NCBI GenBank assembly: GCA_965655095.1
Contig: OZ296651.1
Span: forward strand, 30,628,001-30,692,000
Origin: Haplodiscus bocki
Lineage: Eukaryota
Length of the DNA stretch: 64,000 bases
Direction of reading: 5' to 3'
In this document: positions 16,791 through 56,743 of the stretch, in pieces
Position numbering within the stretch: the first letter of the stretch is position 1
How the letters are laid out: the number at the start of each line of letters is the position of its first letter
Notes under the pieces: generated by a model
The model's input: only the letters and a program-made list of their open reading frames with translations
Database searches by the model: none
Told to the model about the DNA's origin: nothing
Program-made: the position numbers and the translations under genes

Positions 16791-16999
16791 CAGACTGTGT
16801 AAATAACATAAACTTGCAATGTGGCTTCTTAGGAAAAGTTGAAGAGATACAGTTAAATGGGTCTGGATGGAAATCTTCGAGAATATAAAGCATGGATGTT
16901 ATACTTTCTAACTTAGGTGACTAGAGGCATTAGTCATGTCCCAATAATCCCTTTAAATCATAGGTCAATCGTATTTTTATAAAACACTCAAGACAATTA

Positions 17000-19900: not shown

Positions 19901-19909
19901 AGTTACGAT

Positions 19910-20750: not shown

Positions 20751-20759
20751 AATTAAACG

Positions 20760-22949: not shown

Positions 22950-23600
22950 CAGGACAAAGATTCTAGATGAATGAAAGATATATCTATTTTTTCACACACT
23001 ATTTTAGAAAAAAATTGCTTCTGGTATCCACTCAATAAACATAATTGGTCTGATTTCATTGCAAATACAATGTTTTTTCTCAACTTTTTTAGAACTACCG
23101 ATACAAAAACCACTATCATATTCATCTTTCCATGCTTGTCTACAAAGACCTTTGAATACTTTGATAATCAGATCAAATCCAGCAATATCTTTATAACGGT
23201 TTTCCACCTCCGTTAACTTATGCTTAAACAAAAAATTGTTACTGTTGTTTTTCAATGTTTTTTTTAGAAAAAAAGATGGGATTAAAATAAGAAATATGCA
23301 TTTAAATCACTGTGCCTTCCTCTTGTTTTGTGAAAGTTGCATCAAGTACTCTTTGGTTTAAATCCCACATATCATCAAAAACTACACTACGAATCCCGTA
23401 TTCAATTATCTTTCTTTGTTCTTCTATTTTATATTCCTAATTAAATTGTTCAGGTGACCTAGCCTAAAAAATATCTCTACAAAAACAGGTTTTAACGATT
23501 TCATGACCAGATAAGTTTTACCAGAAAAAAGGACCAACAATTAGAGTTCTGAAAATAATATTCTTTTTCTCTCACACTTTCGCTCGGGTGACCAATTCAT
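22950..23600 (-). pseudogene. A32/FtsK-like packaging ATPase remnant
   Basis: Walker A RTLIVGPF-SGKTY (frameshifted); Walker B VVFDDM; LFKHKLTEVENRYKDIAGFD...FKGLCRQAW. Confidence 0.85.
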
Positions 23601-26170: not shown

Positions 26171-26269
26171 AAACTTTGTTTTTCTATTGTACGTCTAATT
26201 TAACCCAAATTTTTGTTTTATATCTTTGAGAAAAAAAAATTTTGGCAAAACTTTTCTTTATTTTTGTTT

Positions 26270-27230
26270 GTTATTTTAGTAAAAATCATAGTTTCATGAT
26301 GAAAATCAACCATGTTCTGCCATCGTCTTCCAAATAGAACGTTGCAAAATTATTCATCTTTCATTTTCCTCTCCATAATGTTTAGTGTTTGTTTTATCAA
26401 TTACCCTACGTCCCGGGCCCACATTTAGTCAAAAATTAAATGAAATAGAGCCTATAACGCCAAATATTATAGTTTGATCAATACAATTACATTTAAACAG
26501 AATGTCATCAATTTCGGTAGAACTCATCTTCTCATTAATTTTATAATTTCTGTTCGTTTAAATATTTTTACGTGGAGAAAATCCTACCTTGTTTGTTAAA
26601 GGGATAAATGTTTTTAAAATTCATTTCCGTATTGTCATTTCCACCGAATATTCTCATAATTGTTTTCATTGTTGTATCGTCAACTTCGTCGGTTAAAAAA
26701 TGAGGGAGGGCTTCAGTATTTTCTAATTTTTCAAAAACTCCTTCTGGTATTGATCAGTAGTGTGTATTTGACTCATGATGTTTCATGTCTACTGGTTCTA
26801 AAACTTTTTTTGTCAATTTCACTATGTATATCATATGTTCATAGTCTCAAAGTTTTCTTTCTTTCGTTTGAATAAATTTTCTTTTGGAAGATCATAATCA
26901 AGATCAGGAAAGAAAATAGGGTGGTTCTCCTATCTTATCTCGTTTTCAAATTCAATTTTTGCTTTGTTCCCACTTTCTGTTGCACTTACGCAACCCGTTC
27001 TGTTGATTGTAGCATTATCATTATAATAACAGACAGAAAAATTTGTATTTTTTTCCTTTTCTCTTATTTTAAAAACGGAGATAAAAATCTCTAAAGTAGT
27101 TACTCCCATCATGCATCTTTGTTTTTTTGTTCTGACGGTATAGTAAATGAAAATATTTGCTTTCATCTTTTTACTTCGTGTTCAAAAGTTTTTGCGGTCT
27201 TGATTTTGTTCGTTTGACTAGTGTATGAGT
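26270..27230 (-). pseudogene. putative minor capsid (penton-like) remnant, copy 2
   Basis: GVTTLEIFISVFKI; DDILFKCNCIDQTIIFG...LNVGPG; LEDDG...DFHHETMIFT; parallels copy 1. Confidence 0.5.
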
Positions 27231-27526
27231 GTCTTCTTGAATAAATATTGATATTTTTGTTCTATCTTTTTAAGGTTCATTTAATAACTTGAATTCCCTC
27301 AGCTGATACTTTGTTCATTTTTTAAAATTTACTGATTATTTTGCGTGTGAGTATGAGTTTGAGAAACGACTCATATGTTGAGTACCGCTTGCTTGAGCCA
27401 CTGATTCATCCGTGGGACGGATGTTTTTCTAATCTGCAGGATTGTTTTCGCTTTGTGAACCGTTGGCTTAGCGACACTAGTCAACACTGTTATCAATTTT
27501 TATTTTTCTTATTGTCAATGTTTGTT

Positions 27527-27930
27527 TTAAACCAAACATAATAAAGCTGATTTAAAATCGAATTTTAACGTTTTGGTTAAGTAAATATGATATAAACAAA
27601 AGCCAGCAGCGTAACTATCAATTCCTCCTGTCTTAGGTTCAGGAAAAACACATTCTTCGTTTTTTCTATTGATCAAATCAGCTAATACCTTGAGAATCCG
27701 CAAGAGCATCCGCAAAAGTCAAAATAACTTTTATTCAGGTAAAAAAACCAATATGTGCCTGTGCTACGGTGGAGACTCACAAAACTTCTTTCTTTTGTAA
27801 GTTTACTATCTCTAACGTATGATTTTTCATTTAAAACTATTTTGTTCAATACCTCTTCTATTCTTTTATTTAATATTGCTTGATTTTTCGAATTCACTTC
27901 ATTAACAAATCCGGTAATAGTTAGTGCCAT
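27527..27930 (-). pseudogene. adenain-like cysteine protease remnant
   Basis: GTYWFFY...YFDFCG (GTHWV...YFDSYG type) and DSYAAGFCLY. Confidence 0.8.
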
Positions 27931-28079
27931 TGTTGTTCCTCTCTTTTCAAATTTTCCTCCACGTCTTTTGTTAGAAGTAAAATAAAGCTTAAAGTCTTCA
28001 TCTTTATCATCATAAATATGGAATAAACCAACGTCATGTAGTAGTTGTATTGTGGCTTTGAGGCAATTATGTCTTTAGG

Positions 28080-29915
28080 AGGTCTTTAAATAGGTTTTGT
28101 ACTAGGTATATCTGAAGGTCCTTCCAAATTAAAGTTTGATAGGATTCAAGTTCATCAAAAAATCATGCTCAACCAATGCGTAATCAGAGACATGATATTT
28201 TAAATTATGTGTTTTTTATTTAATTGCGTAAGTGTACAACTTTTTTTATCTAGTTGATCTATATCGTCTTCAAAAAAGTAGTTCTATGGCGTTAACCTAA
28301 CAACAAAAGTAGCAAAAGAAAGACAGACAGATTTTTTTAGAAATATAATAAGGTTGTTGTTCTTCAGTAAGGGTACAAGGTTTAGTTATCGCTTCTGCTC
28401 TCTTTTGTTTCCGATTTCGTTTTTCTTAATAGTTTTCAGATTTGATTTTCTTTCATGACCAATGCCTTTAATAGCTTTTGTTTTATTTATCAATCTAGCA
28501 TGAACTCTGCAAGTATCACATTAATGATAGTTTTGTGATTTTTTTTTCGTTTCCTTGAAGGTTTTCGGTATTTTCATGTTTCCTTTTGTGGACATAGGGG
28601 CTTTATACTTTAGAATTATGACACTTGACTTTTTGACAAATATATTGTTGGCTTGTATCGAAATTTTTTTGTACATTTATCACATCTATTTTTTTTGTCC
28701 TGTTTCAACTATGTGTTTCTCTGATTGTATTTTTTCTACATGCCTTAGGGGAAAAAATAATGTTCCAAAGACCACAACGTCTTTTTGTGAATTGTCCTAA
28801 TTTCTTTTTGTTTTTCGAATTCTAAATTTTTTGTAGAATTTTTTTTCTTTTTCTTACAACCATCACACATATTCATATTTGTAGTCCTTGACGACAGCTC
28901 AATCTTTCTTTAAGGATTTAAAAATTTTGACTTGATTTTTTAAAAAAAGTGGTTAAGTATATTTGATTGTATATATATCTAATCGGCTTACCTTTTAGGA
29001 AGTCTTCCGCACCTTTCACAAATTTTAGTGATCAGTTTCGCTTCAAATAATTAGAAAAAAATACCAGCATGAACTTCAGCTGCTGTCGTCATTTATTACA
29101 TAATAAAGTTTTCGAATTTTTTTATTCGAAACCTTCATTGAGTTCACGACTGAGGTATAGTAAGTGAAATTAAGTCTGTTGAAAATGCAATTCTTTTTCA
29201 CGTATAAAACAACATGCAATGTTTTTTTTAAAAATTTTTTGTGAAATTGAATATTCTGTTGCTTGAAACAGTAAAAACAAAAAACCATTTATATTGGTTC
29301 TCTTTCATTCATATATGCTCTATCATATAATAGCCTAGCTACGTTCCCACCAAAATCGATGATTAAAAGCTGTTACTAGCTTAAATCACTGATTTGATTC
29401 CGGTTTGCGATAGAATATTGTATTTCTACTGGTTAAGGTCACCTAAAAGGCGTAGTCAGCCTGTCCCCATGTCATTGGTAGACAGTTATGGTGAAATAGC
29501 TCACATTCAGAGGCATATCCCGCGGGAGGGGGAAGTCGGTTTGCTAGAGTCTGCACAAAAACGCATTACGTTATGTTCCTTACCAGGAATGCTCAAGAGA
29601 GTTGGCCAGTAAAGTGTTCTTTTTCATGCAGCTAAATTAAGATATGAAATAGCCCTAGCATAAAGCGTGTGTCTTGTGCAGTGAAAATACACTTAAGGCT
29701 AGGCGTGTATTTTCTTTCATCTTAAACAGGGTTCAATTGTTTTGTGTGTGAATGTAAAGCAGTCAATATAGGAAAACATGACGTCATTTTTTTGTTTTGA
29801 GTCGGTTTTTGCGGGTAAATGTGAAAGAAACTATATAGTGAATTAGAATGTTTTTTTTTGGCGCAGAAGTTTTTTGATTGGGGTCTGTATCTACAATGTG
29901 GATTATATCTCTGCT
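28080..29915 (-). repeat. right TIR of the Maverick
   Basis: Inverted copy of 14985-16790. Confidence 0.88.
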
Positions 29916-33142: not shown

Positions 33143-34258
33143 GGGGGCAGGACAAAACAGCCGATTTTAAATGAGACAAAACCGCCGATTTTGGAAACGG
33201 GACAAAACCGCCGATTTCGAAAATGAGACAAAACCGCCGATTTTGGAAACGGGACAAAACCGCCGATTTCGAAAATGAGACAAAACCGCCGATTTTGGAA
33301 ACGGGACAAAACCGCCGATTTCGAAAATGAGACAAAACCGCCGATTTCGAAAATGAGACAAAACCGCCGATTTCGAAAATGAGATTAAAGAGCCGTTTTT
33401 AAAGTGAGACAAAACCGCCGATTTTCTAGAAGAGAACAAATTGCCATCAAAATTTGTTTCTCTGATAAAAGCGTCTTGGCCTAATTATCGATAATTAGCA
33501 ATTATATTACCAATTACTATAAGAAGCTGAGATATCACTATCTAAATGCAATTTCCTTCAGTTTTTGCCGCTAATAAATTTTCGAGAACGCCAACAACAA
33601 AGATTCTATTGAAACCCTCGCTTCCATTTAACCTAAATTTGTAGTACCCACCTATCTTTTGTCTACCAAACTCCTCTGAATAAATAAAATTTCTGAAAAA
33701 ACTAAAACGCCATTACCAAAAAATTCAGAACTGGTCTTTTCGGATATTTTCGGTTCATGCAATTGTGTATCAGGAAAAATCAGAAAATTATTTGGTGCAA
33801 AAAATAAAATAGGTTGTTTTTTGTGAGAATTTCTCAGTTCCATTGGCATTTCCTTAGATGACAGAAACTTTAGTCTTGAAGATGTTGGAATTATCAAATT
33901 TCATAATTTTTTGTTCGTGGCCGTCCAGAATTTTTTAAACTTGGCTTTGGTTCAAACTTTTTAAACTTTGGGTATTTTAGGCTTATAGTTATTTTGGGTT
34001 TGGTATTTAGAGAGTATAACCATTTCATTAGTATATGAGTAATTTAATTGCTAATTATCCGTAATTAGGCCAAGACATTTTTATCTTGAACAACCTTTAT
34101 TTTTACAAAGACTAGCGATCTGTAATATTAAGAATCGGCGGTTTTGTCCCACTTTAAAATCGGCGGTTTTGTCTCATTATCAAAATCGGATATTTTGTCC
34201 CGTTTTCAAAATCGGCTGTTTTGTCCCGTTCTAAAATCGGCGGTTTTGTCTCGCATCC
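33143..34258. mobile_element. non-autonomous foldback/Mutator-like DNA transposon with subterminal 26-bp tandem repeats
   Basis: (GACAAAACCGCCGATTTYGRAAAYGR)n at 33151-33425, inverted at 34133-34251; inner inverted repeat 33471-33504 / 34046-34082; 8-9-bp TSD (c)ctatattt at 33134-33142 and 34258-34266. Confidence 0.85.
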
Positions 34259-39300: not shown

Positions 39301-40021
39301 CACAAATGACAGGATATCTCTCAATCTGTGATCCTGATCAGCTAACTGACGAACTCAAACCGTGGTTGAGTTCCGACGCCCATGCATCCAGCTGCAGTGT
39401 AATTGGTTGCTGACGTCAATCACAACAGTCAAATTATCGTAAGGAAATGTCAAAATGGTTTTTTTTTGGATTTTTTTGCCTCAGAAGCCAAGAAATTCTG
39501 CCTTAAGTAATACCAAAAACTACGAAAGTCAATGATAAACACGTGTGCGGATAGTGCGGTAAAACGGTAACGCGACGGTAACGCGCTCAACAACGAGGTA
39601 ACGCCAGATACTGCTCAACGTCAACAACATACAATTTCACGTTCACGTAAACGTAAAATTGAGAAGCAATGGTCAAATGAACTTGCACGTGTGTTTTTAT
39701 GCTAGTATTTCCTTTTATTCATCGCCTGCTAATAGCCTAGTGGTATTTGTTACATTGACAAAATTTAAGGCTGTGCTTGCATAGTCATCGTGTTTGTGGT
39801 TCACGATTAACCAACGTCTCACTGTCTTTGTAACATCACGCGCGAAAGCTATATGGAGGAACTGTCTATGTCTTGAAGCTTGAAAAAGTAGAATTGATCG
39901 ACGGGGATATCCACCAGGAACGCTCCCTCGCTAGACAGCTGAAAAGCTCGACACGAAGGTTGGCCAGTGGATATTTTTGTCCTAATGTGAAAACACGATT
40001 TCTGAGAAATACACACACTAT

Positions 40022-40330
40022 GACAACATACCTTAAACATGTAGAGATTATAAAATTTTAAGCTATCTTGACGTGTGATATGCCATTGGATAGCCCGTTG
40101 AAAAACTAGATTACCCTGGAAATTTCAACCTTGTATCTACTATAATCTTCGAGAAAATTGACAAAATCAGTATATGTCGACATACCTTAAACATGTAGAG
40201 ATTATAAAATTTTGAGCTATAACAAAGTGTGATATATCATTGGACAGCCCATTGAAAATGAAGTTTACGCTGAAAAATTCAACCCTGTATCTGCTACCAT
40301 TTTCGAGAAATTAACAAATCAGTATTTGTA
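40022..40330. repeat. two ~154-bp direct repeats in the terminal non-coding region (mirrored at about 55940-56246)
   Basis: cataccttaaacatgtagagattataaaatttt at 40027 and 40181. Confidence 0.85.
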
Positions 40331-40690
40331 AAGTAAAAGAAAAAATTAAACTTATTCATACAAGTATGCGAACAATTATAACATCATTCGTATTTGAATA
40401 GTTGTAATTATACACTCAACACACGAGACAACGTGTTCGAATACTTATATCAACACCAACCCACATAATGCGGATCATTGTTAACAATAATACTATTATA
40501 AATGAATGTTGATAACATTTATAAATCTGATTCCGATTTTGAAGATTTAGTTTACAGTGGTAAAAATCTCCAAGTTGTTTATTTCGACAATATTGAACAA
40601 TTTAAACAAACCGAAAAAAACTCGATAAATTGGTGGTTTTGACCACGACCCTAACACCATACAATATATCATAATTGAACCTAGAATAGA

Positions 40691-43600
40691 TTAGAAATCC
40701 GTATTTCTTTTTCTCATATTTTCGCTATGACACGCTCTACATAAGGTTTAGTTTTCAATATAATTTCCAGTGTTTATTTCGGCTTCATATTTACTACATC
40801 TTTTAATTGGTATTTGAACGGGTTTATCTATAACTATGTTGTTTTCGGTTTCATAATACGGAAGCATGTGACCAAATTCGTTTTCTGGTTGTCGCTTTAA
40901 TTTGTTGATCTCTACCGATTATTCTGCTATACGAGATATTTTCCTCAAACAATCTTGACAACTTTTACTTATTTCACAATTGAAACAATTCATTTCTGGT
41001 TTTATTGCGCAACCAACACATTTTTTACTTTCATCGCAATTCTCACAACCAACTTTACGATGTGGTATCTTAATACCGGCTAGTTCACGTTTCCATTTTA
41101 GTTTTGATATGTTTTTTAGTGTTTTACCTTGTTCCAGATCGAGAAAATCTTTAAAATTTATGTTATTGATGTTTTGGTTAAATCCTTTGAAAGTTGACTT
41201 TTGAGATAATATACGATTTTCATTGATAACAATACAGTATTTAACTTTGGGAGCTAAAAACAAACCATAGACAATTCCAGCGTTCTCACCATAATCGTTT
41301 TTAGATTGAAATAGGTCTTTACCAACCAACCCTTTTTCTATTGGCATATTTTAATCAATTTTGTGAATATATACACTATCCGTGTCTCCATAGTAAATTT
41401 TATTGTTTTTAAAACCATCTAGAGCCAATATAACATCCTTCATTAACCTTTTCGAATGCGATCATATGAGAGATCCAAATTGAAATGGTTGACTATTTAC
41501 TTTTTTACTCACACCATTGTCGTCTACACCGTTATGATCTTTAACGTTTACTAGATAATTTCCGTTTTTGAGAGGGATATATTCTTTTACTCTATCATCG
41601 TATTCTGTTTTCATCCAGTTTTCCGATACACATTTTAAAATTTCATGAATATCGCATCTAATACAACCACCGTACGTACCGTTTGATATTTGTTTACACA
41701 TATCTTGTAAGATAGTTTTACCCGGTTTCTTATTTTCGTTTCTCTTCACCGTCATATCTAAAATATACTCTTTGAACCGATTGTAATCGAGATTATCACA
41801 GATAAAACCCTCGTAAAATTCTTTAATAACACCGCCAATCCTTACAACTTCTTCAATATCAACACTGGTTAGATGTTGGGTTACGTCTCCATTTCTAAAT
41901 CGGTTAATACATTCACATTTGTTATCGGTCTCGTTGTAGACATCTTCTTTAACAGCCATATGTTGTAGAATCAAGTTCTCGGGATTGTGATATTCAACTC
42001 TAAAAAATCCTGTTTTATTCAAAGAAGCCCATTCGCCGGTGTTAAACAATTTACAATATTCTTCACTATCTTCCGATTTATTGCTTTTGCTGTTTGTATT
42101 GCGGGCCAGGTTGATTTTATATGAGCCATTGCTGAAGGACATAAACTATTATAATCGCTACTAACTAAGAGGTCCGATTTATCGATTTTGTTTGATTCTT
42201 TGGAAATTGGCAGGCTAGACAATTTTTTCTTGATATAATTTTCGAAATGTTGTTTGTTTGTTTTCCTATATTCATCGAATTTGTTTTCATATTTATTCGT
42301 ATATTGTTTTTTGACTTTATCTAATCGTTGAAAGTATATTTCAAATAATTTTGATATTTCATGTTCTTTACCAAAGTATTTCTTAAGTATGTTTACTATT
42401 TGATTAAATGAGGTTGATACAAATTTACGATTCAGAGCAACAACCCTACCACCGTGTACACTTCTATGAATGAAATCTCGAACATATTTATTTTTTGGTG
42501 TATAGAACGTTTTTGCTGATTGTTTCATGTATTTCCCCAAAGTAGACCATGCTAGAGAAGATTCTGTTAACGAATTTTTAAACGAAACAGCTGTTATTTT
42601 TTGAATTTTGTTACCGTGTTTTGCTACTACTGCTGCTAGTCCTAATACGTCGTCTATGAGATATGGTTTCCATAATTTTTCATGTTCTTTGTAATTCGAT
42701 AAATTTATTAGATTATGATCGATTTCACCTTTAATTAGTTGTGGTTGAATATTGTATTCTTTTTGTATTTTCTTTAAGGATCCCGAGATATGTACTTTTG
42801 AACAGACAAATTTCATGTATTGCGGTATTTCTTTATCGTTTTCATAGACAGTTCCAACTCTAAAGCTTAGTTTTAAAAATCCTCGAGATGTTTTTATGAT
42901 TTTCATGTCTTTGTCTGTATATTCTTTCGGTAGCGAATTCAAAACAATAGCATTATCAAAACCACTAGCATTGTGACCGATTAGTTGATATCTATGAGAC
43001 GATATTTTGAGCTCACCGTTTTTATCTTTGAAATATTTTGGCTTACCTTTATAATTTGTGGTGATATATTTAATCATACCTAGAACAGGGTTATTGTTAG
43101 CGCGATCAAATATCTGAACATGCTGTCTTTCGATTTCTAATTCTTCTTCTGTCAAATCACCGTTGTAACATTCTTTTAAACGATCTAGATGATAACAACC
43201 CGCCGCATATGTTTCACAAAATTCTTGATATGGCATATGGCACGTTAACAGTTTCGAGATCAAAAGAAAACACTGCAAACAAACAATCTTTCTCATTAAA
43301 TATAGGGAATTTATATTCAACAACTTGTTTTAAAATGTTATCATTAATATGGTCAGGTTGGTATTCGAAATTCTTTTCTAATTCTTTGATCGCATCAGTG
43401 AAATTTGTTTTCTCCCTTTTCCATATCACACAAAAATTGTTTTGATGGATAAATAGACAAATTCTTCGTTCTTTTATAGAAAGTGGTAGAATTCTTTTCT
43501 GTTTTAAATCATAAACACCAAGATTGATGTTGTGCTTTTTACAGAATGGTTGTATTTTAGCGGATGTCATTATATTTTTGTTTCTTTGCGATTCTTTAAT

Positions 43601-44278
43601 AAATTCACGATATCGGTGCGAGAAGTCTTTTTTGTTAATAAATTCTAAACATTTTCTGAAGCATTCGTTTTCCTCAGGTATATAACACAGATTACCTCGA
43701 TATTCTAGAATTTTTTCAAAACTATCGCAACCTGTTTCATACTTACTTCGTTGTATTTTATTGAATGTTTTAGCGTATCTGATTAATTCTCCCGTAAATG
43801 TAATGTTCAGGGTTTCATCATCTTTATCATTTACCTTCTCGAATCTTTTATCAAGTTGCTCGCCGTCTTTAAAGAGAGCATTAATCGTGCTAGGGTCATT
43901 ATCGTTTATTCTAATTTCACCTTTTAATATGAATGGATATCCATCTTTAATATTTTCAAAAATCTCATGAATTGAATCATTTTCGAATATAACCACGTTG
44001 TGTTCTACAATATCTAGAAATTTTTTAAAATCAATCTCGTCATCTTGTTTAATACCACTAAAATCAAACGGATTTGTTTCACCATATTGTTCAATATCTC
44101 GAATTCTCTGGTTAACGTCGTTTAATTCAAATATTTTGTTTTGAAGTCTGGTGTTTAACTCGTTTTTGGAATCGTTTAAAACATCGAGCTGTTTCAGGTT
44201 TGTGGTGTTTTTTATTTTATTAATAACCACATCTATTCTGTGTTCCAATAATTCAATTTTTTTGATAATTTTTTCCAT
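40691..44278 (-). pseudogene. protein-primed-type family B DNA polymerase, left-arm copy (disrupted)
   Basis: Exo motifs FDLET, HNASGFD, YLIDDV; SVHGGR; motif A DYNSLCPSAM; motif B KQISNGTYG; motif C YGDTDS (intact here); arm-specific 7-bp duplication near 43235 and stop at 41351. Confidence 0.93.
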
Positions 44279-44381
44279 TTATAATATAGAAAACCGTTGA
44301 ATTAAAATATATTTGTTGATAAAAGTAGTATTTTAAACTATGATATAAAAAGTATTCAATAATTTATACTTAAATAAAAGG

Positions 44382-44706
44382 ATGAACAAAACGAAATAAT
44401 TAAAATATGTCGTGCTTGCGGTCACGAAAGAGAGTATGATAATTATCATCGTTTATATGTTGCATGCAAAAAATGCGCGAGTGCACGATCTGTTAAACAC
44501 TATCAAAAAAATAGAGAAAAATATTGGAAAAAGCTAGAATTTATCGTGAAAATAATAAAGACAAACTTAAACGAAACAGAAAAACTATTGACACATGCAC
44601 GGAAAATATACAAGATCTTTACAATCAGATTAACACCTTAACAGAGATGCTGAAACTACCACATTATTTGGTTAGAACGCCGTTGATTCGTGAACACAAC
44701 AAATAA
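44382..44706 (+). pseudogene. small CxxC...CxxC basic protein (frameshifted); mirror at 51566-51890
   Basis: CRACGHERE...CKKCASAR...YQKNREK/ILEKARIYRENNKDK. Confidence 0.6.
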
Positions 44707-44771
44707 CAACAGAATCGTTAACAGTTCAATTTTAAAAAATAATATTGAAAAAATAATTATCTATTTTAAAC

Positions 44772-45528
44772 ATGACTGCATTAATGTGTCAAGTAACGTG
44801 TACCTTGTGTAACATAAAAATTGATGAAACAGAATTGAAAAAACACATAATTTCTACAAAACATTTACAAAATTGTAAAAACGTTGACGATGAAATTGCA
44901 ATAAAAATTTTTGAGATGATTTTTGAGGTAAGACAGGAAAAGAAGAGAATATTTAATTTAAAAAATGAAAAAACACACAATTTCTGGCAACTATATTTTT
45001 CAACAAAGCTACCAAAAGAGGAGTTTGATGCATTATTTAATAATTCAGTCGACAAATTGGAAATAGAAAAAAAATCTTACAACAGATTTTAATGATTTTA
45101 TATCAAAAGTAACACCTATTATCGGGGAAATTTATTTTGGTTCAATGAAAGATATAACATTCTGTAAGATTTGTAGTATTGAAATAAAAAAATCACTGCT
45201 TTAGGATCACATTAATTCAAAGGAACACAAAAAAATTGAAGATTATTTTATTAGGAAATGTATGACTTATTGTGAACTTTGTTGTAAAGAAATAAGAAAT
45301 GATGAATGGAGAGATCATGTAATTTCGGAGAAACATTTAGGGTTTGAAGAAAAAAAATATTGTTTGTACTGCAATATGAAATATGATAATCATAGTAAAT
45401 ATAATTATAGTAGTTATGGTAATCAAGAAAGAGCATATATTAGACATAAAAACCATATATCTAACAGTCACCTAGATAGCGAGTTTCATAGGAGAAATGT
45501 GGAGAGATTTGATTTTTATGCTAATTAG
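44772..45528 (+). pseudogene. four-finger C2H2 (CxxC...HxxxxxH) zinc-finger protein, left copy
   Basis: CTLC..HIISTKH, CKIC..HINSKEH, CELC..HVISEKH, CLYC..HLDSEFH; frameshift near 45070 and stop near 45202. Confidence 0.8.
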
Positions 45529-45592
45529 ATTTTTATAATCATTATGGTTGTTTAATCAGAATTTTTATAATTATGGGTACTTCCGTATTTAA

Positions 45593-46075
45593 ATGAATAA
45601 AAGATTTTCATATGATAATATTATCAAATCACGATCAAAAGAGCCAAATGACTTAATTAGAACATATAAGCTAGATCGATGTTGTGATTTTATGGAAAAA
45701 AAATTCACTAATCCCAGATTAACACAAAAACAAATTTGTAAACAATTAAGATTTTCCGATAGTACTATTAAACGATATAGAGACGATATTAAAATGGATA
45801 GTCCTTATAGATGAAATAATCACAAAAAGAAAAAACCTAAGCAATCACCAGGTACTACAACAGAAAATATTTCCAAGAAAGAAAATACTAAATCAGTTAC
45901 AAATAAGAGATCTAAAAACAATGTTATAAAAGGTGGTAATACCCACACATTAACCGGTAGAGAATTAATCGATCAAGCTTTTCAGAATGATAAAGCAGAC
46001 TCTGTTTTAGAAAACAATCAAAAAGATAATAAAAAATATTTTACAATAGCTAGAAGAATGGTGGATAATGTTTAA
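45593..46075 (+). pseudogene. HTH-motif DNA-binding protein, left copy (one in-frame stop)
   Basis: LTQKQICKQLRFSDSTIKRYR; the TGA at 45812 is AGA in the right arm. Confidence 0.7.
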
Positions 46076-46134
46076 AAACACATATACTTGTACGAATATA
46101 CGAGTTTCTTTTTGCAAACAATCATTATTATTAA

Positions 46135-46530
46135 ATGGATAAAATAGAACAAGAAATAAAGCAAGATGAAAATACGATAAATGACATTGCAGAAAAATTA
46201 GAACTCGTCTCTAACACTAATATGGTTACAGAAGAGGAACTTTTACAAAAATTTGTTGCCAAAGATGTAATAAAAAACAAGATGATCACCGTTGCTGGCC
46301 AAATGTTTATTGAATATGAGAAAGAAATAGATAATTCTAATCAAATAATCAAAGGATATGAAGATTATATCGGTGATGATAAAATCAGAAAGGATATATT
46401 AGACAAAGTTTGTGGAGAAAACATAAAAGAAGTTTCTTCTGAGAAAGATGAAATTTATAAAAATAATTTTATTAATAGATTTATCAAAATTAAAAATATT
46501 AATAAACGAGAAATGCTATCAAACAAATAA
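46135..46530 (+). CDS. 131-aa hypothetical protein, coiled-coil-like
   Basis: Intact ORF; mirror copy at 49734-50130. Confidence 0.6.
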   Translation: MDKIEQEIKQDENTINDIAEKLELVSNTNMVTEEELLQKFVAKDVIKNKMITVAGQMFIEYEKEIDNSNQIIKGYEDYIGDDKIRKDILDKVCGENIKEVSSEKDEIYKNNFINRFIKIKNINKREMLSNK

Positions 46531-46654
46531 TTATTGTTATGAAAAGTATCAAAAATCTTTTATTATTCTTTTTATGTGCAAGGTATAAATTTTTTTAGTA
46601 TTTTAATTGATATATTGCTTCGTTAGCTATATTATTAACAAGTTCTGTTCTCAT

Positions 46655-46816
46655 TTATCTTTTCTTATAGTGTGTTTCTATTATCATTGAGTTAGTACAT
46701 GAGTTTTTTAAAACGTTATTAGCATGTCCTTGAGATTTTAAATGGGTTTGATAATTATCAGGCAAAACAGATATGTGACAAACACCACAATAAATTCTAT
46801 TTTGTACACAAGGCAT
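46655..46816 (-). CDS. 53-aa single C2H2 zinc-finger peptide
   Basis: MPCVQNRIYCGVCHISVLPDNYQTHLKSQGH; not in the ORF track; paralogous to the neighbouring 145-aa ORF. Confidence 0.65.
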   Translation of the reverse strand: MPCVQNRIYCGVCHISVLPDNYQTHLKSQGHANNVLKNSCTNSMIIETHYKKR

Positions 46817-46883
46817 TTTTTTATAATTTAGATAAATTATTTCAATTTTTTGTATACAAAACTCTCAAAAATAATATTTCAGT

Positions 46884-47321
46884 TCACATCTTTATCCTTA
46901 TATATACATATCCATCGCGGCAATAGACATATTCTCCCAACGTTATCCCCATAACATTATATAACTTTTGTAACACTTCTTTACCTTCTGTACTTGATTC
47001 ACCATCATAATGATTAGAGAACTTTAATAACAAAATTTCAGAACCAATATCTTTTGCTGTTGTTTGGTTACTTTCTATAATTTTTTTAACGTTTGAAAAG
47101 TCTGTCTTTATGCTATCATTCGTTTCAAGAGATACCTTATTCATACAACATGTGAGATCATGGTTGTCACGATGGGTTATATCATTATTACAACCACAAC
47201 ATTGCTTTCTCATAACGTTAATATAATGTCCTTTAGATTTTAAATGGTTTGAATAATTATTACGAAAATACGAGTTTTTACAATCACTACAGTAAATTCT
47301 GTTGTTTTGAGCACAATACAT
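46884..47321 (-). CDS. 145-aa C2H2 zinc-finger protein
   Basis: NRIYCSDCKNSYFRNNYSNHLKSKGH; intact in both arms. Confidence 0.75.
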   Translation of the reverse strand: MYCAQNNRIYCSDCKNSYFRNNYSNHLKSKGHYINVMRKQCCGCNNDITHRDNHDLTCCMNKVSLETNDSIKTDFSNVKKIIESNQTTAKDIGSEILLLKFSNHYDGESSTEGKEVLQKLYNVMGITLGEYVYCRDGYVYIRIKM

Positions 47322-47415
47322 TTTTTTATTTGGATAATTTACTTCAATTATGAATAAACAATAGTGATAACAGATTTCAACATATCAGAAAAGTAACAAT
47401 TCACTTGAAACATAG

Positions 47416-47950
47416 CAGTTACATAAAACGTAACAGTTACATAAAACGTAACGGTTACATAAAACGTAACAGTTACATAAAACGTAACAGAACAGATCAG
47501 AACAGATCAGAACAGATCAGATCAGAACAGATCAGAACAGATCAGAACAGATCAGAACAGTTCAAAGTGTACTTTTTATCATCTAAGTAAATTAAAATAT
47601 GATATACACACATTTGATTAGAAGAAGAATATGTTATTTGAGATTTCAAATTTATTTGATTAGAAGAAGATTATGGTATTTGAGATTTGATTAGAAGAAG
47701 ATTATTTTGTTTGAGATTTGTTTAGAACAAGATTATGTTATTTGAGATTTCAAAATTATTTGATTAGAAGAAGATTATATTTTTTGAGATTTGATTAGAA
47801 GAAGATTATGGTCTTTGAGATTTCAAAAATATTTGATTACAAGAAGATTATGTTGTTTGAGATTTCAAATTTATTTGATTAGAAGAAGATTATGTTGTTT
47901 GAGATTTCAAAATTTTTCGATTAGAAGAATACTATGTTGTTTTGATATTT
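47416..47950. repeat. left subcentral satellite block: 18-bp x4, (AACAGATCAG)n, and ~31/42-bp GATTAGAAGAAGATTAT repeats x~9
   Basis: Seen directly. Confidence 0.92.
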
Positions 47951-48124
47951 CTTAATTTTAGAATAAACACACAATGTCCTGTGAAAATTCAAGGTATTTG
48001 TACTTTTTAGCATCTACATAAAGTAAATTATGGTTATGAAAAGTCAATTGATTAGGTCAAATCGAATAATAATGCACTTATAAACGTTAAAACGTCACGA
48101 GAGTTCAATGCGAGTTCACCAGTG

Positions 48125-48227
48125 GCACATATTTACAAGTAATAACCTATATGTGAGTATATCATTAGCGAGCTTACAGCTCACTGAATAAACATATTTA
48201 CAAGTAATAACTTATAAGTAAGTACAT
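48125..48227. other. structured palindrome centre: axial hairpin plus two direct quasi-palindromic sites
   Basis: GAGCT-TAC-AGCTC centred at 48176, the midpoint of the arm ends 48124 and 48228; ACATATTTACAAG-TAATAA-C(C/T)TATA.. at 48127 and 48192. Confidence 0.8.
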
Positions 48228-48409
48228 CACTGGTGACCTCGACCTGAACTCTCGTGACGTTTTAACTTTTTTAAGTGCATTATTATTCGATTTGACCTAA
48301 TCAATTGACTTTTCATTACCACATTTTACTTTATGTAGATGCTAAAAAGTACAAATACTTTGAATTTTCACAGGACATTGTGTGTTTATTCTAATATTTA
48401 GAAATATCA

Positions 48410-48850
48410 AAACAACATAGTATTCTTCTAATCGAAAAGGTTTGAAATCTCAAACAACATAATCTTCTTCTAACCAGATAATTTTGAAATCTCAAATAAT
48501 ATAATCTTCTTCTAATCAAATAATTTTGAAATCTCAAATAACATAATCTTCTTCTAATCAAATCTCAAATGCCATAATCTTCTTCTAATCAAATAATTTT
48601 GAAATCTAAAATAGCATATTCTTCTTCTAATCAAATGTGTGTATATCATATTTTAATTTACTTAGATGATAAAGAGTACAATTTGAACTGTTCTGATCTG
48701 TTCTGATCTGTTCTGATCTGATCTGTTCTGATCTGTTCTGTTACGTTTTATGTAACTGTTACGTTTTATGTAACTGTTACGTTTTATGTAACTGTTACGT
48801 TTTATGTAACTGTTACGTTTTATGTAACTGTTACGTTTTATGTAACTGCT
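48410..48850. repeat. right subcentral satellite block (inverted; 18-bp x6, long unit x~6)
   Basis: Seen directly; copy numbers differ from the left arm. Confidence 0.92.
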
Positions 48851-48942
48851 ATATTTCAAGTGAATTGTTACTTTTCTGATATTTTGAAATCTATAATCAC
48901 TATTATTCATTCATAATTGAAATATATTATCCAATTAATAAA

Positions 48943-49380
48943 ATGTATTGTGCTCAAAACAACAGAATTTACTGTAGTGATTGTAAAAACTCTTATTTTC
49001 GTAATAATTATTCAAATCATTTAAAATCTAAAGGACATTATATTAACGTTATGAGAAAGCAATGTTGTGGTTGTAATAATGATATAACCCATCGTGACAA
49101 CCATGATCTCACATGTTGTATGAATAAGGTATCTCTTGAAACGAATGATAGCATAAAGACAGACATTTCAAACGTTAAAAAAATTATAGAAAGTAACCAA
49201 ACAACAGCAAAAGATATTGGTTCTGAAATTTTGTTATTAAAGTTCTATAACCATTATGATGGTGAATCAAGTACAGAAGGTAAAGAAGTGTTACAAAAGT
49301 TATATAATGTTATGGGGATAACGTTGGGAGAATATGTCTATTGCCGCGATGGATATGTATATATAAGGATAAAGATGTGA
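48943..49380 (+). CDS. 145-aa C2H2 zinc-finger protein, right copy
   Basis: Two amino-acid differences from 46884-47321. Confidence 0.75.
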   Translation: MYCAQNNRIYCSDCKNSYFRNNYSNHLKSKGHYINVMRKQCCGCNNDITHRDNHDLTCCMNKVSLETNDSIKTDISNVKKIIESNQTTAKDIGSEILLLKFYNHYDGESSTEGKEVLQKLYNVMGITLGEYVYCRDGYVYIRIKM

Positions 49381-49447
49381 ACTGAAATATTATTTTTGAG
49401 AGTTTTGTATACAAAAAATTGAAATAATTTATCTAAATTATAAAAAA

Positions 49448-49609
49448 ATGCCTTGTGTACAAAATAGAATTTATTGTGGTGTTTGTCACATATCTGTTTT
49501 ACCTGATAAATATCAAACCCATTTAAAATCTCAAGGACATGCTAATAACGTTTTAAAAAACTCATGTACTAACTCAATGATAATAGAAACACACTATAAG
49601 AAAAGATAA
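49448..49609 (+). CDS. 53-aa single C2H2 zinc-finger peptide, right copy
   Basis: MPCVQNRIYCGVCHISVLPDKYQTHLKSQGH...KKR*. Confidence 0.65.
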   Translation: MPCVQNRIYCGVCHISVLPDKYQTHLKSQGHANNVLKNSCTNSMIIETHYKKR

Positions 49610-49733
49610 ATGAGAACAGAACTTGTTAATAATATAGCTAACGAAGCAATATATCAATTAAAATACTAAAAAAATTTATACCTTGCACATAAAAAGAATA
49701 ATAAAATTTTTTTGATACTTTTCATAACAATAA

Positions 49734-50130
49734 TTATTTGTTTGATTGCATTTCTCGTTTATTAATATTTAAAATTTTAATAAATCTATTAATAAAATTA
49801 TTTTTATAAACTTCATCTTTCTCAGAACAAACTTCTTTTATTTTTTCTCCACAAACTTTGTCTAATATATCCTTTCTGATTTTATCATCACCGATATAAT
49901 CTTCATATCCTTTGATTATTTGATTAGAATTATCTATTTCTTTCTCATATTCGATAAACATTTGGCCAGCAACGGTGGTCATCTTGTTTTTTATTACATC
50001 TTTGGCAACAAATTTTTGTAAAAGTTCCTCTTTTGTAACCATATGAGTGTTAGAGACGAGTTCTAATTTTTCTGCAATGTCATTTATCGTATTTTCATCT
50101 TGCTTTTTTTCTTGTTCTCTTTTATCTATT
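49734..50130 (-). pseudogene. coiled-coil-like hypothetical protein, right copy (original ATG lost)
   Basis: Mirror of 46135-46530. Confidence 0.55.
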
Positions 50131-50188
50131 TAATAATAATGATTGTTTGCAAGAAGAAACTCGTATCTTCGTACAAGTATATGTGTTT

Positions 50189-50581
50189 TTAAACATTATC
50201 CACCATTCTTCTAGCTATTGTAAAATATTTTTTATTATCTTTTTGATTGTTTTCTAAAACAGAGTCTGCTTTATCATTCTGAAAAGCTTGATCGATTAAT
50301 TCTCTACCAGTTAATGTGTGGGTATCAGAAACATTACCACCTTTTATAACATTGTTTTTAGATCTCTTATTTGTAACTGATTTAGTATTTTCTTTCTTGC
50401 AAATATTTTCTGTTGTAGTATCTGGTGATTGCTTAGGTTTTTTCTTTTTGTGATTATTTCTTCTATGAGGACTATCCATTTTAATATCGTCTCTATATCG
50501 TTTAATAGTACTATCGGAAAATCCTAAATGTTTACAAATTTGATTTTGTGTTAATCTGGGATTATTGAACTTTTCTTCCAT
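50189..50581 (-). CDS. HTH-motif protein, right copy (5' part disrupted)
   Basis: LTQNQICKHLGFSDSTIKRYR. Confidence 0.65.
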   Translation of the reverse strand: MEEKFNNPRLTQNQICKHLGFSDSTIKRYRDDIKMDSPHRRNNHKKKKPKQSPDTTTENICKKENTKSVTNKRSKNNVIKGGNVSDTHTLTGRELIDQAFQNDKADSVLENNQKDNKKYFTIARRMVDNV

Positions 50582-50744
50582 AAAATCACAACATCAATCG
50601 AGTTTATATGTTCTAATTAAGTCATTTGGCTCTATTGATCGTGATTTGATAATATTATCATATGAAAATCTTTTTTTGATTTATATACGAAAGTACCCAT
50701 AATTATAAAATTTCTGATTAAACAACCATAATTATTATAAAAAC

Positions 50745-51500
50745 CTAATTAGCACAAAAATCAAATCTCTCCACATTTCTCTTATGAAACTCGCTATCTA
50801 GGTGACTGTTAGATATATGGTTTTTATGTGTAATATGTGCTCTGTCTTGATTACCATAACTAGTACAATTATATTTACTATGATTATCATATTTCTTGTT
50901 GCAGTACAAACCATATTTTTTTTCTTCAAACTCTAAATATTTCTCCGAAATTACATGATCTCTCCAATCATCATTTCTTATTTCTTTACAACAAAGTTCA
51001 CAATAAGTCATACATTTCCTAAAAAAATAATCTTCAATTCCTTTGTGTTCCTTTGAATTAATGTGATCATAAAGCAGTGATTTCTTTATTTCAATACTAC
51101 AAATCCTACAGAATGCTATATATTTCATTGAACCAAAATAATTTTTCCCGATAATAGGTGTCACTTTCGATATAAAATCATTAAAATCTGTTGTAAGAGT
51201 TTTCTCTATTTCCAATTTGTCGACTGAATTATTACATAATGTATCAAACTTCTCTTTTGGTAGATTTTCTGAAAATTATAGTTGCTAGAAATTGTGTGTT
51301 TTTTCCTTTTTCAAATTAAATATTCTCTTTTTTTCCGGTCTTACCTCAAAAATCATCTCAAAAAATTTTATTGCAATTTCATCGTCAACGTTTTTACAAT
51401 TTTGTAAATGTTTTGTAGAAATTATGTGTTTTTTCAATTCTGTTTCATCAATTTTTATGTTACACAAGGTACACGTTACTTGACACATTAATGCAGTCAT
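50745..51500 (-). pseudogene. four-finger C2H2 protein, right copy (251 codons, one in-frame TAG at 51285)
   Basis: ORFs 51285-51500 and 50745-51215 are in the same frame; the left arm has TGG at the stop position. Confidence 0.8.
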
Positions 51501-51993
51501 GTTTAAAATAGATAATTATTTTTTCAATATTATTTTTTAAAATTGAACTGTTAACGATTCTGTTGTTATTTGTTGTGTTCACGAATCAACGGCGTTCTAA
51601 CCAAATAATGTGGTAGTTTCAGCATCTCTGTTAAGGTGTTAATCTGATTGTAAAGATCTTGTATATTTTCCGTGCATGTGTCAATAGTTTTTCTGTTTCG
51701 TTTAAGTTTGTCTTTATTATTTTCACGATAAATTCTAGCTTTTTCCAATATTTTTCTCTATTTTTTTGATAGTGTTTAACAGATCGTGCACTCGCGCATT
51801 TTTTGCATGCAACATATAAACGATGATAATTATCATACTCTCTTTCGTGACCGCAAGCACGACATATTTTAATTATTTCGTTTTGTTCATCCTTTTATTT
51901 AAGTATAAATTATTGAATACTTTTTATATCATAGTTTAAAATACTACTTTTATCAACAAATATATTTTAATTCAACGGTTTTCTATATTATAA

Positions 51994-54900
51994 ATGGAAA
52001 AAATTATCAAAAAAATTGAATTATTGGAACACAGAATAGATGTGGTTATTAATAAAATAAAAAACACCACAAACCTGAAACAGCTCGATGTTTTAAACGA
52101 TTCCAAAAACGAGTTAAACACCAGACTTCAAAACAAAATATTTGAATTAAACGACGTTAACCAGAGAATTCGAGATATTGAACAATATGGTGAAACAAAT
52201 CCGTTTGATTTTAGTGGTATTAAACAAGATGACGAGATTGATTTTAAAAAATTTCTAGATATTGTAGAACACAACGTGGTTATATTCGAAAATGATTCAA
52301 TTCATGAGATTTTTGAAAATATTAAAGATGGATATCCATTCATATTAAAAGGTGGAATTAGAATAAACGATAATGACCCGAACACGATTGATGCTCTCTT
52401 TAAAGACGGCGAGCAACTTGATAAAAGAATCGGGAAGATAAATGATAAAGATGATGAAACCCTGAACATTACATTTACGGGAGAATTAATCAGATACGCT
52501 GAAACATTCATTAAAATACAACGAAGTAAATATGAAACAGGTTGCGATAGTTTTAAAAAAATTCTAGAATATCGAGGTAATCTGTGTTATATACCTGAGG
52601 AAAACGAATGTTTCAGAAAATGTTTAGAATTTATTTACAAAAAAGACTTCTCGCACCGATATCGTGAATTTATTAATGAATCGCAAAGAAACAAAAATAT
52701 AATGACATCCGCTAAAATACAACCTTTCTGTAAAAAGCACAACATCAATCTTGGTGTTTATGATTTAAAACAGAAAAGAATTCTACCACTTTCTATAAAA
52801 GAACGAAGAATTTGTCTATTTATCCATCAAAACCATTTTTTTGTGATATGGAAGAGGGAGAAAACAAATTTCACTGATGCGATCAAAGAATTAGAAAAGA
52901 AATTTGAATACCAATCTGACCATATTAATGATAACATTTTAAAACAAGTTGTTGAACATAAATTCCCTATATCTAATGAGAAAGATTGTTTGTTTGCAGT
53001 GTTTTCTTTTGATCTCGAAACTGTTAACGTGCCATATCAAGAATTTTGTGAAACATATGCGGCGGGTTGTTATCATCTAGATCGTTTAAAAGAATGTTAC
53101 AACGGTGATTTGACAGAAGAAGAATTAGAAATCGAAAGACAGCATGTTCAGATATTTGATCGCGCTAACAATAACCCTGTTCTAGGTATGATTAAATATA
53201 TCACCACAAATTATAAAGGTAAGCCAAAATATTTCAAAGATAAAAACGGTGAGCTCAAAATATCGTCTCATAGATATCAACTAATCGGTCACAATGCTAG
53301 TGGTTTTGATAATGCTATTGTTTTGAATTCGCTACCGAAAGAATATACAGACAAAGACATGAAAATCATAAAAACATCTCGAGGATTTTTAAAACTAAGC
53401 TTTAGAGTTGGAACTGTCTATGAAAACGATAAAGAAATACCGCAATACATGAAATTTGTCTGTTCAAAAGTACATATCTCGGGATCCTTAAAGAAAATAC
53501 AAAAAGAATACAATATTCAACCACAACTAATTAAAGGTGAAATCTATCATAATCTAATAAATTTATCGAATTACAAAGAACATGAAAAATTATGGAAACC
53601 ATATCTCATAGACGACGTATTAGGACTAGCAGCAGTAGTAGCAAAACACGGTAACAAAATTCAAAAAATAACAGCTGTTTCGTTTAAAAATTCGTTAACA
53701 GAATCTTCTCTAGCATGGTCTACTTTGGGGAAATACATGAAACAATCAGCAAAAACGTTCTATACACCAAAAAATAAATATGTTCGAGATTTCATTCATA
53801 GAAGTGTACACGGTGGTAGGGTTGTTGCTCTGAATCGTAAATTTGTATCAACCTCATTTAATCAAATAGTAAACATACTTAAGAAATACTTTGGTAAAGA
53901 ACATGAAATATCAAAATTATTTGAAATATACTTTCAACGATTAGATAAAGTCAAAAAACAATATACGAATAAATATGAAAACAAATTCGATGAATATAGG
54001 AAAACAAACAAACAACATTTCGAAAATTATATCAAGAAAAAATTGTCTAGCCTGCCAATTTCCAAAGAATCAAACAAAATCGATAAATCGGACCTCTTAG
54101 TTAGTAGCGATTATAATAGTTTATGTCCTTCAGCAATGGCTCATATAAAATCAACCTGGCCCGCAATACAAACAGCAAAAGCAATAAATCGGAAGATAGT
54201 GAAGAATATTGTAAATTGTTTAACACCGGCGAATGGGCTTCTTTGAATAAAACAGGATTTTTTAGAGTTGAATATCACAATCCCGAGAACTTGATTCTAC
54301 AACATATGGCTGTTAAAGAAGATGTCTACAACGAGACCGATAACAAATGTGAATGTATTAACCGATTTAGAAATGGAGACGTAACCCAACATCTAACCAG
54401 TGTTGATATTGAAGAAGTTGTAAGGATTGGCGGTGTTATTAAAGAATTTTACGAGGGTTTTATCTGTGATAATCTCGATTACAATCGGTTCAAAGAGTAT
54501 ATTTTAGATATGACGGTGAAGAGAAACGAAAATAAGAAACCGGGTAAAACTATCTTACAAGATATGTGTAAAAAAATATCAAACGGTACGTACGGTGGTT
54601 GTATTAGATGCGATATTCATGAAATTTTAAAATGTGTATCGGAAAACTGGATGAAAACAGAATACGATGATAGAGTAAAAGAATATATCCCTCTCAAAAA
54701 CGGAAATTATCTAGTAAACCTTAAAGATCATAACGGTGTAGACGACAATGGTGTGAGTAAAAAAGTAAATAGTCAACCATTTCAATTTGGATCTCTCATA
54801 TGATCGCATTCGAAAAGGTTAATGAAGGATGTTATATTGGCTCTAGATGGTTTTAAAAACAATAAAATTTACTATGGAGACCCGGATAGTGTATATATTC

Positions 54901-55577
54901 ACAAAATTGATTACAATATGCCAATAGAAAAAGGGTTGGTTGGTAAAGACCTATTTCAATCTAAAAACGATTATGGTGAGAACGCTGGAATTGTCTATGG
55001 TTTGTTTTTAGCTCCCAAAGTTAAATACTGTATTGTTATCAATGAAAATGGTATATTATATCAAAAGACAACTTTCAAAGGATTTAACCAAAACATCAAT
55101 AACATAACTTTTAAAGATTTTCTCGATCTGGAACAAGGTAAAACATTAAAAAACATATCAAAACTAAAATGGAAACGTGAACTAGCCGGTATTAAGATAC
55201 CACATCGTAAAGTTGGTTGTGAGAATTGCGATGAAAGTAAAAAATGTGTTGGTTGCGCAATAAAACCAGAAATGAATTGTTTCAATTGTGAAATAAGTAA
55301 AAGTTGTCAAGATTGTTTGAGGAAAATAACTCGTATAGCAGAATAATCGGTAGAGATCAACAAATTAAAGCGACAACCAGAAAACGAATTTGGTCACATG
55401 CTTCCGTATTATGAAACCGAAAACAACATAGTTATAGATAAACCCGTTCAAATACCAATTAAAAGATGTAGTAAATATGAAGCCGAAATAAACATTGGAA
55501 ATTATATTAAAAACTAAACCTTATGTAGAGCGTGTCATAGCGAAAATATGAGAAAAAGAAGAAATACGGATTTCTAA
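51994..55577 (+). pseudogene. protein-primed-type family B DNA polymerase, right-arm copy (~1,190 codons reconstructed)
   Basis: 750-aa, 226-aa and 174-aa ORFs plus read-through tail; Exo I-III; motifs A, B and C (here YGDPDS); FLAPKVKY; TFKG; Cys-rich C-terminus. Confidence 0.93.
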
Positions 55578-56743
55578 TCTATTCTAGGTTTAATTATGAT
55601 ATATTGTATGGTGTTAGGGTCGTGGTCAAAACCACGAATTTATCGAGTTTTTTTCGGTGTGTATAAATTGTTCATTATTGTCGAAATAAACAACTTGGAG
55701 ATTTTTACCACTGTAAACTAAATCTTCAAAATCGGAATCAGATTTATATATGTTATCAACATTCATTTATAATAGAATTATTGTTAACAATGATCCGCAT
55801 TATGTGGGTTGGTGTTGATATAAGTATTCGAACACGTTGTCTCGTGTGTTGAGTGTATATTTACAACTATTCAAATACGAATAATGTTATAATTGTTCGC
55901 ATACTTGTATGAATAAGTTTAATTTTTTCTTTTACTTTACAAATACTGATTTGTTAATTTCTCGAAAATGGTAGCAGATACAGGGCTGAATTTTTCAGCG
56001 TAAACTTAATTTTCAATGGGCTGTCCAATGATATATCACACTTTGTTATAGCTCAAGATTTTATAATCTCTACATGTTTAAGGTATGTCGACATATACTG
56101 ATTTTGTCAATTTTCTCGAAGATTATAGTAGATACAAGGTTGAAATTTCCAGGGTAATCTAGTTTTTCAACGGGCTATCCAATGGCATATCACACGTGAA
56201 GCTAGCTTAAAATTTTATAATCTCTACTTGTTTAAGGTATGTTGTCATAGTGTGTGTATTTCTCAGAAATCGTGTTTTCACATTAGGACAAAAATATCCA
56301 CTGGGCAACTTTCGTGTCGAGCTTTCCAGTTGTCTAGCGAGGGAGCGTTCCTGGTGGATATCCCCGTCGATCAATTCTACTTTTTCAAGCTTCAAGACAT
56401 AGACAGTTCCTCCATTTAGCTTTTGCGCGTGATGTTACAAAGACAGTGATACGTTGGTTAATCGTGAACCACAAACACGATGACTATGCAAGCACAGCCT
56501 TAAATTTTGTCAATGTAACAAATACCACTAGGCTATTAGGAGGCGATGAATAAAAGGAAATACTAGCATAAAAATACACGTGCAAGTTCATTTGACCGTT
56601 GCTTCTCAATTTTACGTTTACGTGAACGTGGAATTGTATGTTGTTGACGTTGAGCAGTATCTGGCGTTACCTCGTTGTTGAGAGCGTTACCGTCGCGTTA
56701 CCGTTTTACCGCACTATCCGCACACGTGTTTATTATTAAAGTC

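Follow-up and report, generated by a model that had tools for sequence, protein, structure and literature searches.

Arm-to-arm copying of lesions as a likely origin of the mosaic arms of a palindromic Polinton derivative in Haplodiscus bocki

The stretch of Haplodiscus bocki DNA analyzed here (64,000 nucleotides, positions 30,628,001 to 30,692,000 of contig OZ296651.1, assembly GCA_965655095.1; hereafter the window, to which all coordinates refer) contains a 17.2-kb element (39531-56737) that is a palindrome over its entire length. The element is a decayed derivative of the Polintons, and we consider it likely that its arms became a mosaic through the repeated use, after insertion, of one arm as repair template for the other, in tracts of ~0.5-1.5 kb that would have copied private lesions to both arms. 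The mosaic itself is real, not the product of chance, and probably not an artefact. Self-comparison revealed a single inverted repeat (39531-47792 against 48445-56737, 97.2% identity) that extends through tandem arrays to a ~100-bp spacer, giving arms at 39531-48124 and 48228-56737, and the same six bases flank the element on both sides as a target-site duplication (39525-39530 and 56738-56743, plus strand). Every gene is therefore present in two head-to-head copies. An earlier note on this DNA, made from the letters alone, had placed the palindrome at 40691-55577; the element that it recognized exists but is wider. An alternate haplotype in the assembly was rejected, since the right flank is single-copy.

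The differences between the arms are strongly clustered in blocks (left-arm coordinates). The outer part differs at 31 of 1240 positions (39531-40770, 2.5%) and then at 10 of 922 (40771-41692, 1.1%). It is followed by a nearly identical block (41693-43227, 1 difference in 1535 bp, 0.07%; mirror 53038-54572), a diverged one (43228-43917, 24 in 690, 3.5%), a fully identical one (43918-44906, 0 in 989, 0%; mirror 51366-52354), the most diverged block of the arm (44907-45955, 64 in 1049, 6.1%), which spans a zinc-finger and a helix-turn-helix (HTH) gene, and a last block at 45956-47300 (25 in 1345, 1.9%). At the mean rate of 2.0%, the Poisson probabilities of the two identical blocks are 1.6e-12 and 2.7e-9, and none of 2000 permutations matched the longest identical run. 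The low-divergence block at 40771-41692, which contains two stop codons common to both arms, likely represents an older conversion. The mosaic that the earlier note had described is thus confirmed, and the uniform divergence that it named as counterevidence is not seen in the block-wise arm identity. Its reading of the Polinton-type family B polymerase (PolB), encoded on the minus strand of the left arm (40706-44278) and on the plus strand of the right (51994-55565), also holds: residues 1-120 are the same in both arms, the first difference being at 121; the ~18 differences that it counted in the next ~220 residues correspond to 17 in residues 121-327 plus a 7-bp duplication in the left arm at 43228; and the following ~400 residues differ once, at residue 518.

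Several other origins of this pattern were rejected. Among the copies examined, no family member qualifies as a donor from which the diverged blocks came by ectopic import: the nearest relative of the left arm at 44907-45955 is the right arm (94%, next best 88%), and close relatives of this copy agree with the left and the right arm about equally often. Position-fixed cold spots or selection on PolB do not account for the identical runs, whose positions vary and which occur although both genes are dead. An inherited asymmetry of the outer arm was discarded because recurrent arm differences are rare.

Both PolB copies are pseudogenes that share five inactivating lesions: a frameshift near 42075/54190, a motif-A cysteine (42140), and three stop codons (41463, 40920, and 40749). 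The three stops are premature, since the natural homologue P0002, found in the database, aligns through all of them to 55565. The frameshift was found in none of 73 other arms, and the four other lesions in 0/67, 0/69, 1/69, and 0/64 of those arms in which the site could be read. The frameshift and the motif-A cysteine fall inside a 1027-bp identical run, and the three stops in identical runs of 161, 165, and 51 bp; the earlier note had proposed all five, and all are real and nearly private, although only two lie in long identical blocks. Each of them may have been spread by conversion. The lesions that it held to be specific to one arm are so: the 7-bp duplication is confined to the left, DTD has become DPD in motif C on the right, and the breaks in the zinc-finger and HTH genes do not coincide between the arms. 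The homologues P0002 and P0005 (82% and 68% to the window gene) exceed the PF03175 cut-off (49.7 and 48.6 against 25.8 bits) and contain exonuclease and polymerase motifs. No PDB match was found for PolB, and its predicted structure had a confidence (pLDDT, 39.5) too low to judge a TP-vOTU-exo-palm order.

The element belongs to a family that provides independent tests of arm-to-arm copying. A search of the H. bocki genome (1.5 Gb) with the element terminus yielded 2380 candidates; among the 40 that were scored, many occur in inverted pairs 13-19 kb apart. All 22 pairs that were fetched are inverted along their length, a figure that is not an unbiased share because they had been picked for inverted pairing; eight other fetched loci comprise two palindromes, the rest being short, deleted, or without a second arm inside the fetched 20 kb. 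The copies lie on several chromosomes, with arm identities of 92-99%, and in the 18 with standard ends the 6-bp duplication is exact in 11 and has one mismatch in 3, whereas in 4 the flanking bases do not match in register. Of 21 copies, 14 contain identical runs of 450-1475 bp, the positions of which differ from copy to copy; in 16 copies such runs cover 19% of the arm, compared with 0.1% in simulations without conversion. Two palindromes with a PolB of another clade (L048 and L054, see below) aligned poorly in that half and were left out of the pooled counts, and in the counts based on 16 copies another five divergent ones were used as outgroup only.

Private alleles, each confined to a single element and counted in conserved PolB columns, show whether mutations were copied between the arms or only reverted. 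In the PolB region of 12 elements with runs of at least 300 bp, 173 private alleles shared by both arms lie within runs, compared with an expectation of 198 for overwriting between the arms and of 98 for mere reversion of new changes. This in-run enrichment (Mantel-Haenszel odds ratio (OR) 1.81, p 5e-7) supports the claim of the earlier note that mutations were copied between arms; pooled over the 12 elements, derived alleles have been copied to both arms. These shared private alleles are spread evenly over the three codon positions (1.78/1.48/1.88%), as are the arm-specific ones, unlike variants common to at least three elements (44:35:134), and therefore arose while PolB was not under selection. 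Short deletions that shift the reading frame and are private to one element were found on both arms in 25 cases and on a single arm in 37 (16 copies), and shared alleles contain an excess of weak-to-strong changes (OR 1.55, p 0.01).

Not all observations fit this interpretation equally well. Three of the five shared lesions of the window element lie outside its long identical blocks, and in this copy alone shared private alleles are about as frequent inside long runs (1.00%) as outside (1.09%). Only 7 of 10 elements deviate in the expected direction (Wilcoxon p 0.06), and the bias toward guanine and cytosine (GC) does not reach significance when in-run alleles are taken by themselves (p 0.10). 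Neutral-looking shared alleles also occur outside runs in the family (0.9%), and birth from an already decayed copy would yield them too. Finally, conversion at a constant rate predicts that runs of at least 450 bp cover 9-16% of the outer arm, against 24% observed, and no run exceeds 1.5 kb. A model in which 120-200 identical bases are needed to start a tract comes closer to the observed cover, on a rough grid that was not fitted.

The time and place of the exchanges can be examined thanks to the target duplications, sites that the arms cannot convert. They differ at 3 of 84 bases, and three copies with a mutated duplication (L005, L013, and L017) have perfect runs of 1146, 842, and 971 bp. 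In another copy (L021/L022, L070/L071; G000 C5 near 64.53 Mb) the target duplication is gone and 835 bp of host flank stand in inverted duplicate on both sides of the element (93.8%), as expected if copying from one arm overran the element end. Since mutated duplications coexist with perfect runs and one copy has copied host flank, the exchange likely took place in situ, in the chromosome.

These data bear on three other explanations. The element may have been born defective, mobilized in trans from one arm, or from a homogenized form, of a decayed copy, so that it already had some or all of the shared lesions when it inserted and later conversion only erased new differences. A family devoid of its own integrase needs mobilization in trans in any case, and such a birth agrees with the neutral-looking shared alleles outside long runs, the lack of an in-run excess in this copy, and the position of the three stops in short runs. 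Nevertheless, we regard it as unlikely: siblings almost uniformly lack the lesions, no near-identical parent was found (best other matches of 96, 88, 94, and 95% in four genome searches, 40 candidates being scored in each), variants across elements show purifying selection and so indicate that the transposing lineages had a working PolB, and birth from a decayed copy cannot by itself produce the mosaic. The pooled in-run excess, moreover, rejects a history of reversion alone. The earlier note had left open, besides chromosomal conversion, patchy mismatch repair in a fold-back intermediate, in which an old copy with diverged arms would have been excised, snapped back as a single strand, repaired in patches, and re-integrated. 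The sequence is able to fold back over its whole length, perfect runs exceed the constant-rate prediction and are capped near 1.5 kb, and the arm asymmetry adjoining the spacer is inherited between copies. However, perfect runs would then imply very recent insertion, yet copies with mutated target duplications have them; no relative above 96% was found among the candidates scored, no single other copy has the arm differences of this one, and the copied host flank of L021/L022 requires a chromosomal event. Conversion in the chromosome fits better, and repair in a transposition intermediate appears highly improbable.

In a consensus or polishing artefact, reads of one arm would have replaced the sequence of the other patch by patch. 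Such an error would likewise enrich shared private alleles inside runs, and it would agree with perfect runs twofold above the constant-rate model. Read-derived contigs from four runs of two samples were aligned to the left arm (three of the runs come from one sample, possibly the assembled one; library types are unrecorded), and the depths given are those among the longest pieces listed. Pieces matching block 1 (41693-43227) exactly, including the frameshift, have depths of 29-33, against 15 in the unique flank and 7-11 in single-arm pieces (X2). Such a depth exceeds what a single arm would yield. For block 2 (43918-44906), exact-match pieces reach 37-40, against at most 20-22 for single-arm pieces (X3, X4), though this block is more AT-rich, and 86-97 in the second sample against 45-53 for some single-arm pieces. 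Against our interpretation, block-2 depth equals flank depth, so that a single arm on both haplotypes would also be possible there. Old events are indicated by the blocks of intermediate divergence (1.1%), by shared lesions that lie no more than 10 bp from differences still retained, and by a copied flank diverged by 6%. The roughly twofold depth thus disfavors the polishing artefact about which the earlier note had warned, and we give this explanation little credence, although consensus errors may have contributed a minor share in the family. Two stretches behave differently between samples: 45138-45234 in its left-arm version and 46041-46187 in its right-arm version have two-arm depth in sample S1 and about one-arm depth in S2, a hint of segregating conversion tracts or of differences in zygosity.

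The sequence of events that we favor under arm-to-arm conversion would begin with the insertion of the element as a single unit whose arms were nearly identical, carried out by the integrase of a co-resident Polinton that has similar ends. Both arms would afterwards have mutated neutrally, while intrachromosomal strand invasion between them, in the repair of breaks that the palindrome itself may have provoked, overwrote individual blocks on separate occasions. As 43% of private alleles are still arm-specific, each site may have undergone about two conversions over the stay of the element. Conversion was probably identity-dependent, with homogenized blocks being converted again while diverged blocks and the center escape, and it may have been mildly GC-biased. 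Divergence is higher toward the center: in 18 of 21 copies the arms differ more over the inner 1.5 kb than over the outer 5 kb (median 4.4 versus 2.2%, p 0.0005). The center itself (48104-48248), a ~100-bp spacer with two adjoining fixed asymmetric marks, is arranged in this way also in 10 of 22 other copies.

The H. bocki genome contains at least 126 capsid-gene matches. We examined five co-resident Polintons and used their open reading frames (ORFs), including integrase (PF00665), ATPase, and capsid, as tblastn queries (E 1e-5). The integrase, capsid, and packaging ATPase ORFs had no match in 23 palindromes (22 copies plus the window element), which the Polinton ORFs match through PolB only, and the palindrome ORFs form no integrase-like cluster. 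The nearest PolB sequences (36-41%) are encoded by two of these Polintons, both bearing capsid and integrase, whose terminal repeats also share ~620 bp of subterminal DNA with the palindrome at 80% (39690-40310, mirror ~55950-56580); one of the two starts with AATAAT and has a 6-bp duplication, as the palindromes do. To judge from these similarities, the two Polintons are the likely source of integrase in trans. The closely overlapping stretch 39690-40330, which has a 154-bp tandem pair, shows a summed contig depth thousands of times that of the flank and recurs beside several Polintons; it probably corresponds to a very abundant short derivative, of which L025 would be an 8-kb one.

Compared with Polintons/Mavericks as presented in the available portion of Krupovic et al. 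2024 (PMC11161782), the palindromes have a PolB of the PF03175 family, protein-primed in the homologues (the window copies being pseudogenes), a 6-bp target-site duplication, an AATAAT-type start, and related subterminal DNA. In contrast, they have no retroviral-type integrase and no capsid or packaging ATPase match, and instead of terminal inverted repeats around a unique interior, the inverted repeat is the entire element, with a spacer of only ~100 bp. Because these three defining features are absent, we classify the element as a Polinton derivative and not as a member of the group. No description of whole-element palindromic Polintons was found by full-text literature searches, a coverage outside which Repbase, supplements, and the 2006 Polinton description fall, so that a prior mention is possible; word look-up of 'palindrom' gave nothing in the accessible parts of the nematode Polinton preprint, PMC10120064 and PMC11161782. 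Related loci in metagenome and viral contigs were searched for and none was confirmed.

The palindromic plan extends to a second polymerase clade. L048/L049 and L054/L055 are whole palindromes whose PolB belongs to another Polinton clade (57-72% to AGTAGT-ended Polintons) and whose inner arm is that of the window family; L048 ends in AGTAGT, and L054 has the center marks twice. A palindromic Polinton derivative without integrase or capsid, found in two polymerase clades, is apparently undescribed. Tentatively, and as a possibility that we hold to be less probable than the contrary, these elements may constitute Polinton satellites of a new kind, in which a replicon of 8.6 kb, protein-primed at one end and closed by a hairpin at the other, is integrated as a head-to-head dimer by the integrase of a helper Polinton. 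A single shared center-and-zinc-finger module would have been combined with polymerases and ends from two Polinton clades, and the many resulting 17-kb palindromes in an animal genome would record identity-dependent, GC-biased arm conversion and persist thanks to their imperfect centers.

Hairpin-ended replicons and palindromic dimers are known from the flip/flop telomeres of poxviruses and parvoviruses, from Paramecium mitochondrial DNA, and from Tetrahymena rDNA. They resemble the present element in being head-to-head dimers around a short imperfect hairpin with flanking tandem repeats, whereas here only the integrated form is seen; we know of none that integrates with a 6-bp duplication or pairs a protein-primed end with a hairpin center. 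Retroviral long terminal repeats are identical at insertion and reportedly homogenized later by non-allelic conversion, a history similar to the one that we propose, but here the repeats are 8.6-kb inverted, gene-bearing arms instead of short direct ones. For duplicates that evolve in concert, Fawcett and Innan 2011 (PMC3924837) treat a dependence of conversion rate on divergence. The closest parallel to the copying is the human Y-chromosome palindrome P6, for which the accessible text of Hallast et al. 2013 (PMC3723533) gives arm-to-arm conversion with a mean tract of 2068 bp and GC and ancestral bias. In both systems inverted arms are homogenized by non-crossover copying in kilobase tracts, and the GC bias may also be common to both. 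Unlike P6, the present carrier is a mobile element that has inserted in many independent copies on several chromosomes; its spacer measures 100 bp, and its arms are 92-99% alike instead of >99.9%, which makes the tracts directly visible. Furthermore, copying in P6 preserves genes, whereas here it fixes lesions, nearly without bias (173 of 198 expected). The mechanism is thus already known from sex-chromosome palindromes, and it is the carrier that is apparently undescribed.

Besides PolB, each arm encodes several small proteins. The left arm has a CxxC ORF, a broken multi-zinc-finger gene, the broken HTH gene, and a 131-aa ORF of unknown kind (44378-46530, plus strand; mirror 49734-51894 on the minus strand), with at most weak Pfam matches below the cut-off, and two Cys/His-rich ORFs (46655-47384, minus strand; mirror 48880-49609 on the plus strand). 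Tandem arrays with units of 18, 5/10, and 42/73 bp lie on both sides of the center (47389-48848), in unequal copy number between the arms. In the family, an ORF similar to GNAT acetyltransferases (PF00583, 22.5 bits, cut-off 20.7) lies near the terminus of L045 (8438-9139) and is present in six fetched stretches. L026 and L028 (G000 C12 77.08-77.14 Mb), the closest relatives by terminus (96%), are single arms that share one orientation and are separated by 45 kb; they likely are a segmental duplication of a truncated copy. Elsewhere in the window, a second and much older 15-kb element (14985-29915), whose decayed, AT-rich interior lies between terminal inverted repeats of 1.7 kb (78-84%), is likely a decayed Polinton; an ORF piece within it (at 19926) resembles by eye the Polinton integrase of this genome and has no Pfam match. 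Minisatellites with units of 59 bp and 26/52 bp occur at 11521-11858, 33150-33425, and 34128-34250, the 26-bp unit recurring inverted 700 bp away.

Gene conversion in palindromes has so far been measured mostly on a few mammalian sex-chromosome repeats. In the family described here every insertion provides a separate replicate whose arms were alike at the start, with a target duplication as clock and dead genes as neutral markers, so that tract length, bias, dependence on identity, and the effect of distance from the center become measurable directly in one genome. The family also displays a further Polinton body plan, a whole-element palindrome without detectable integrase or capsid, and carries a warning for dating, as the identity of arms or terminal repeats underestimates the age of an insertion. 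In these elements, as on human Y-chromosome palindromes, damage likely spreads to both arms through overwriting.

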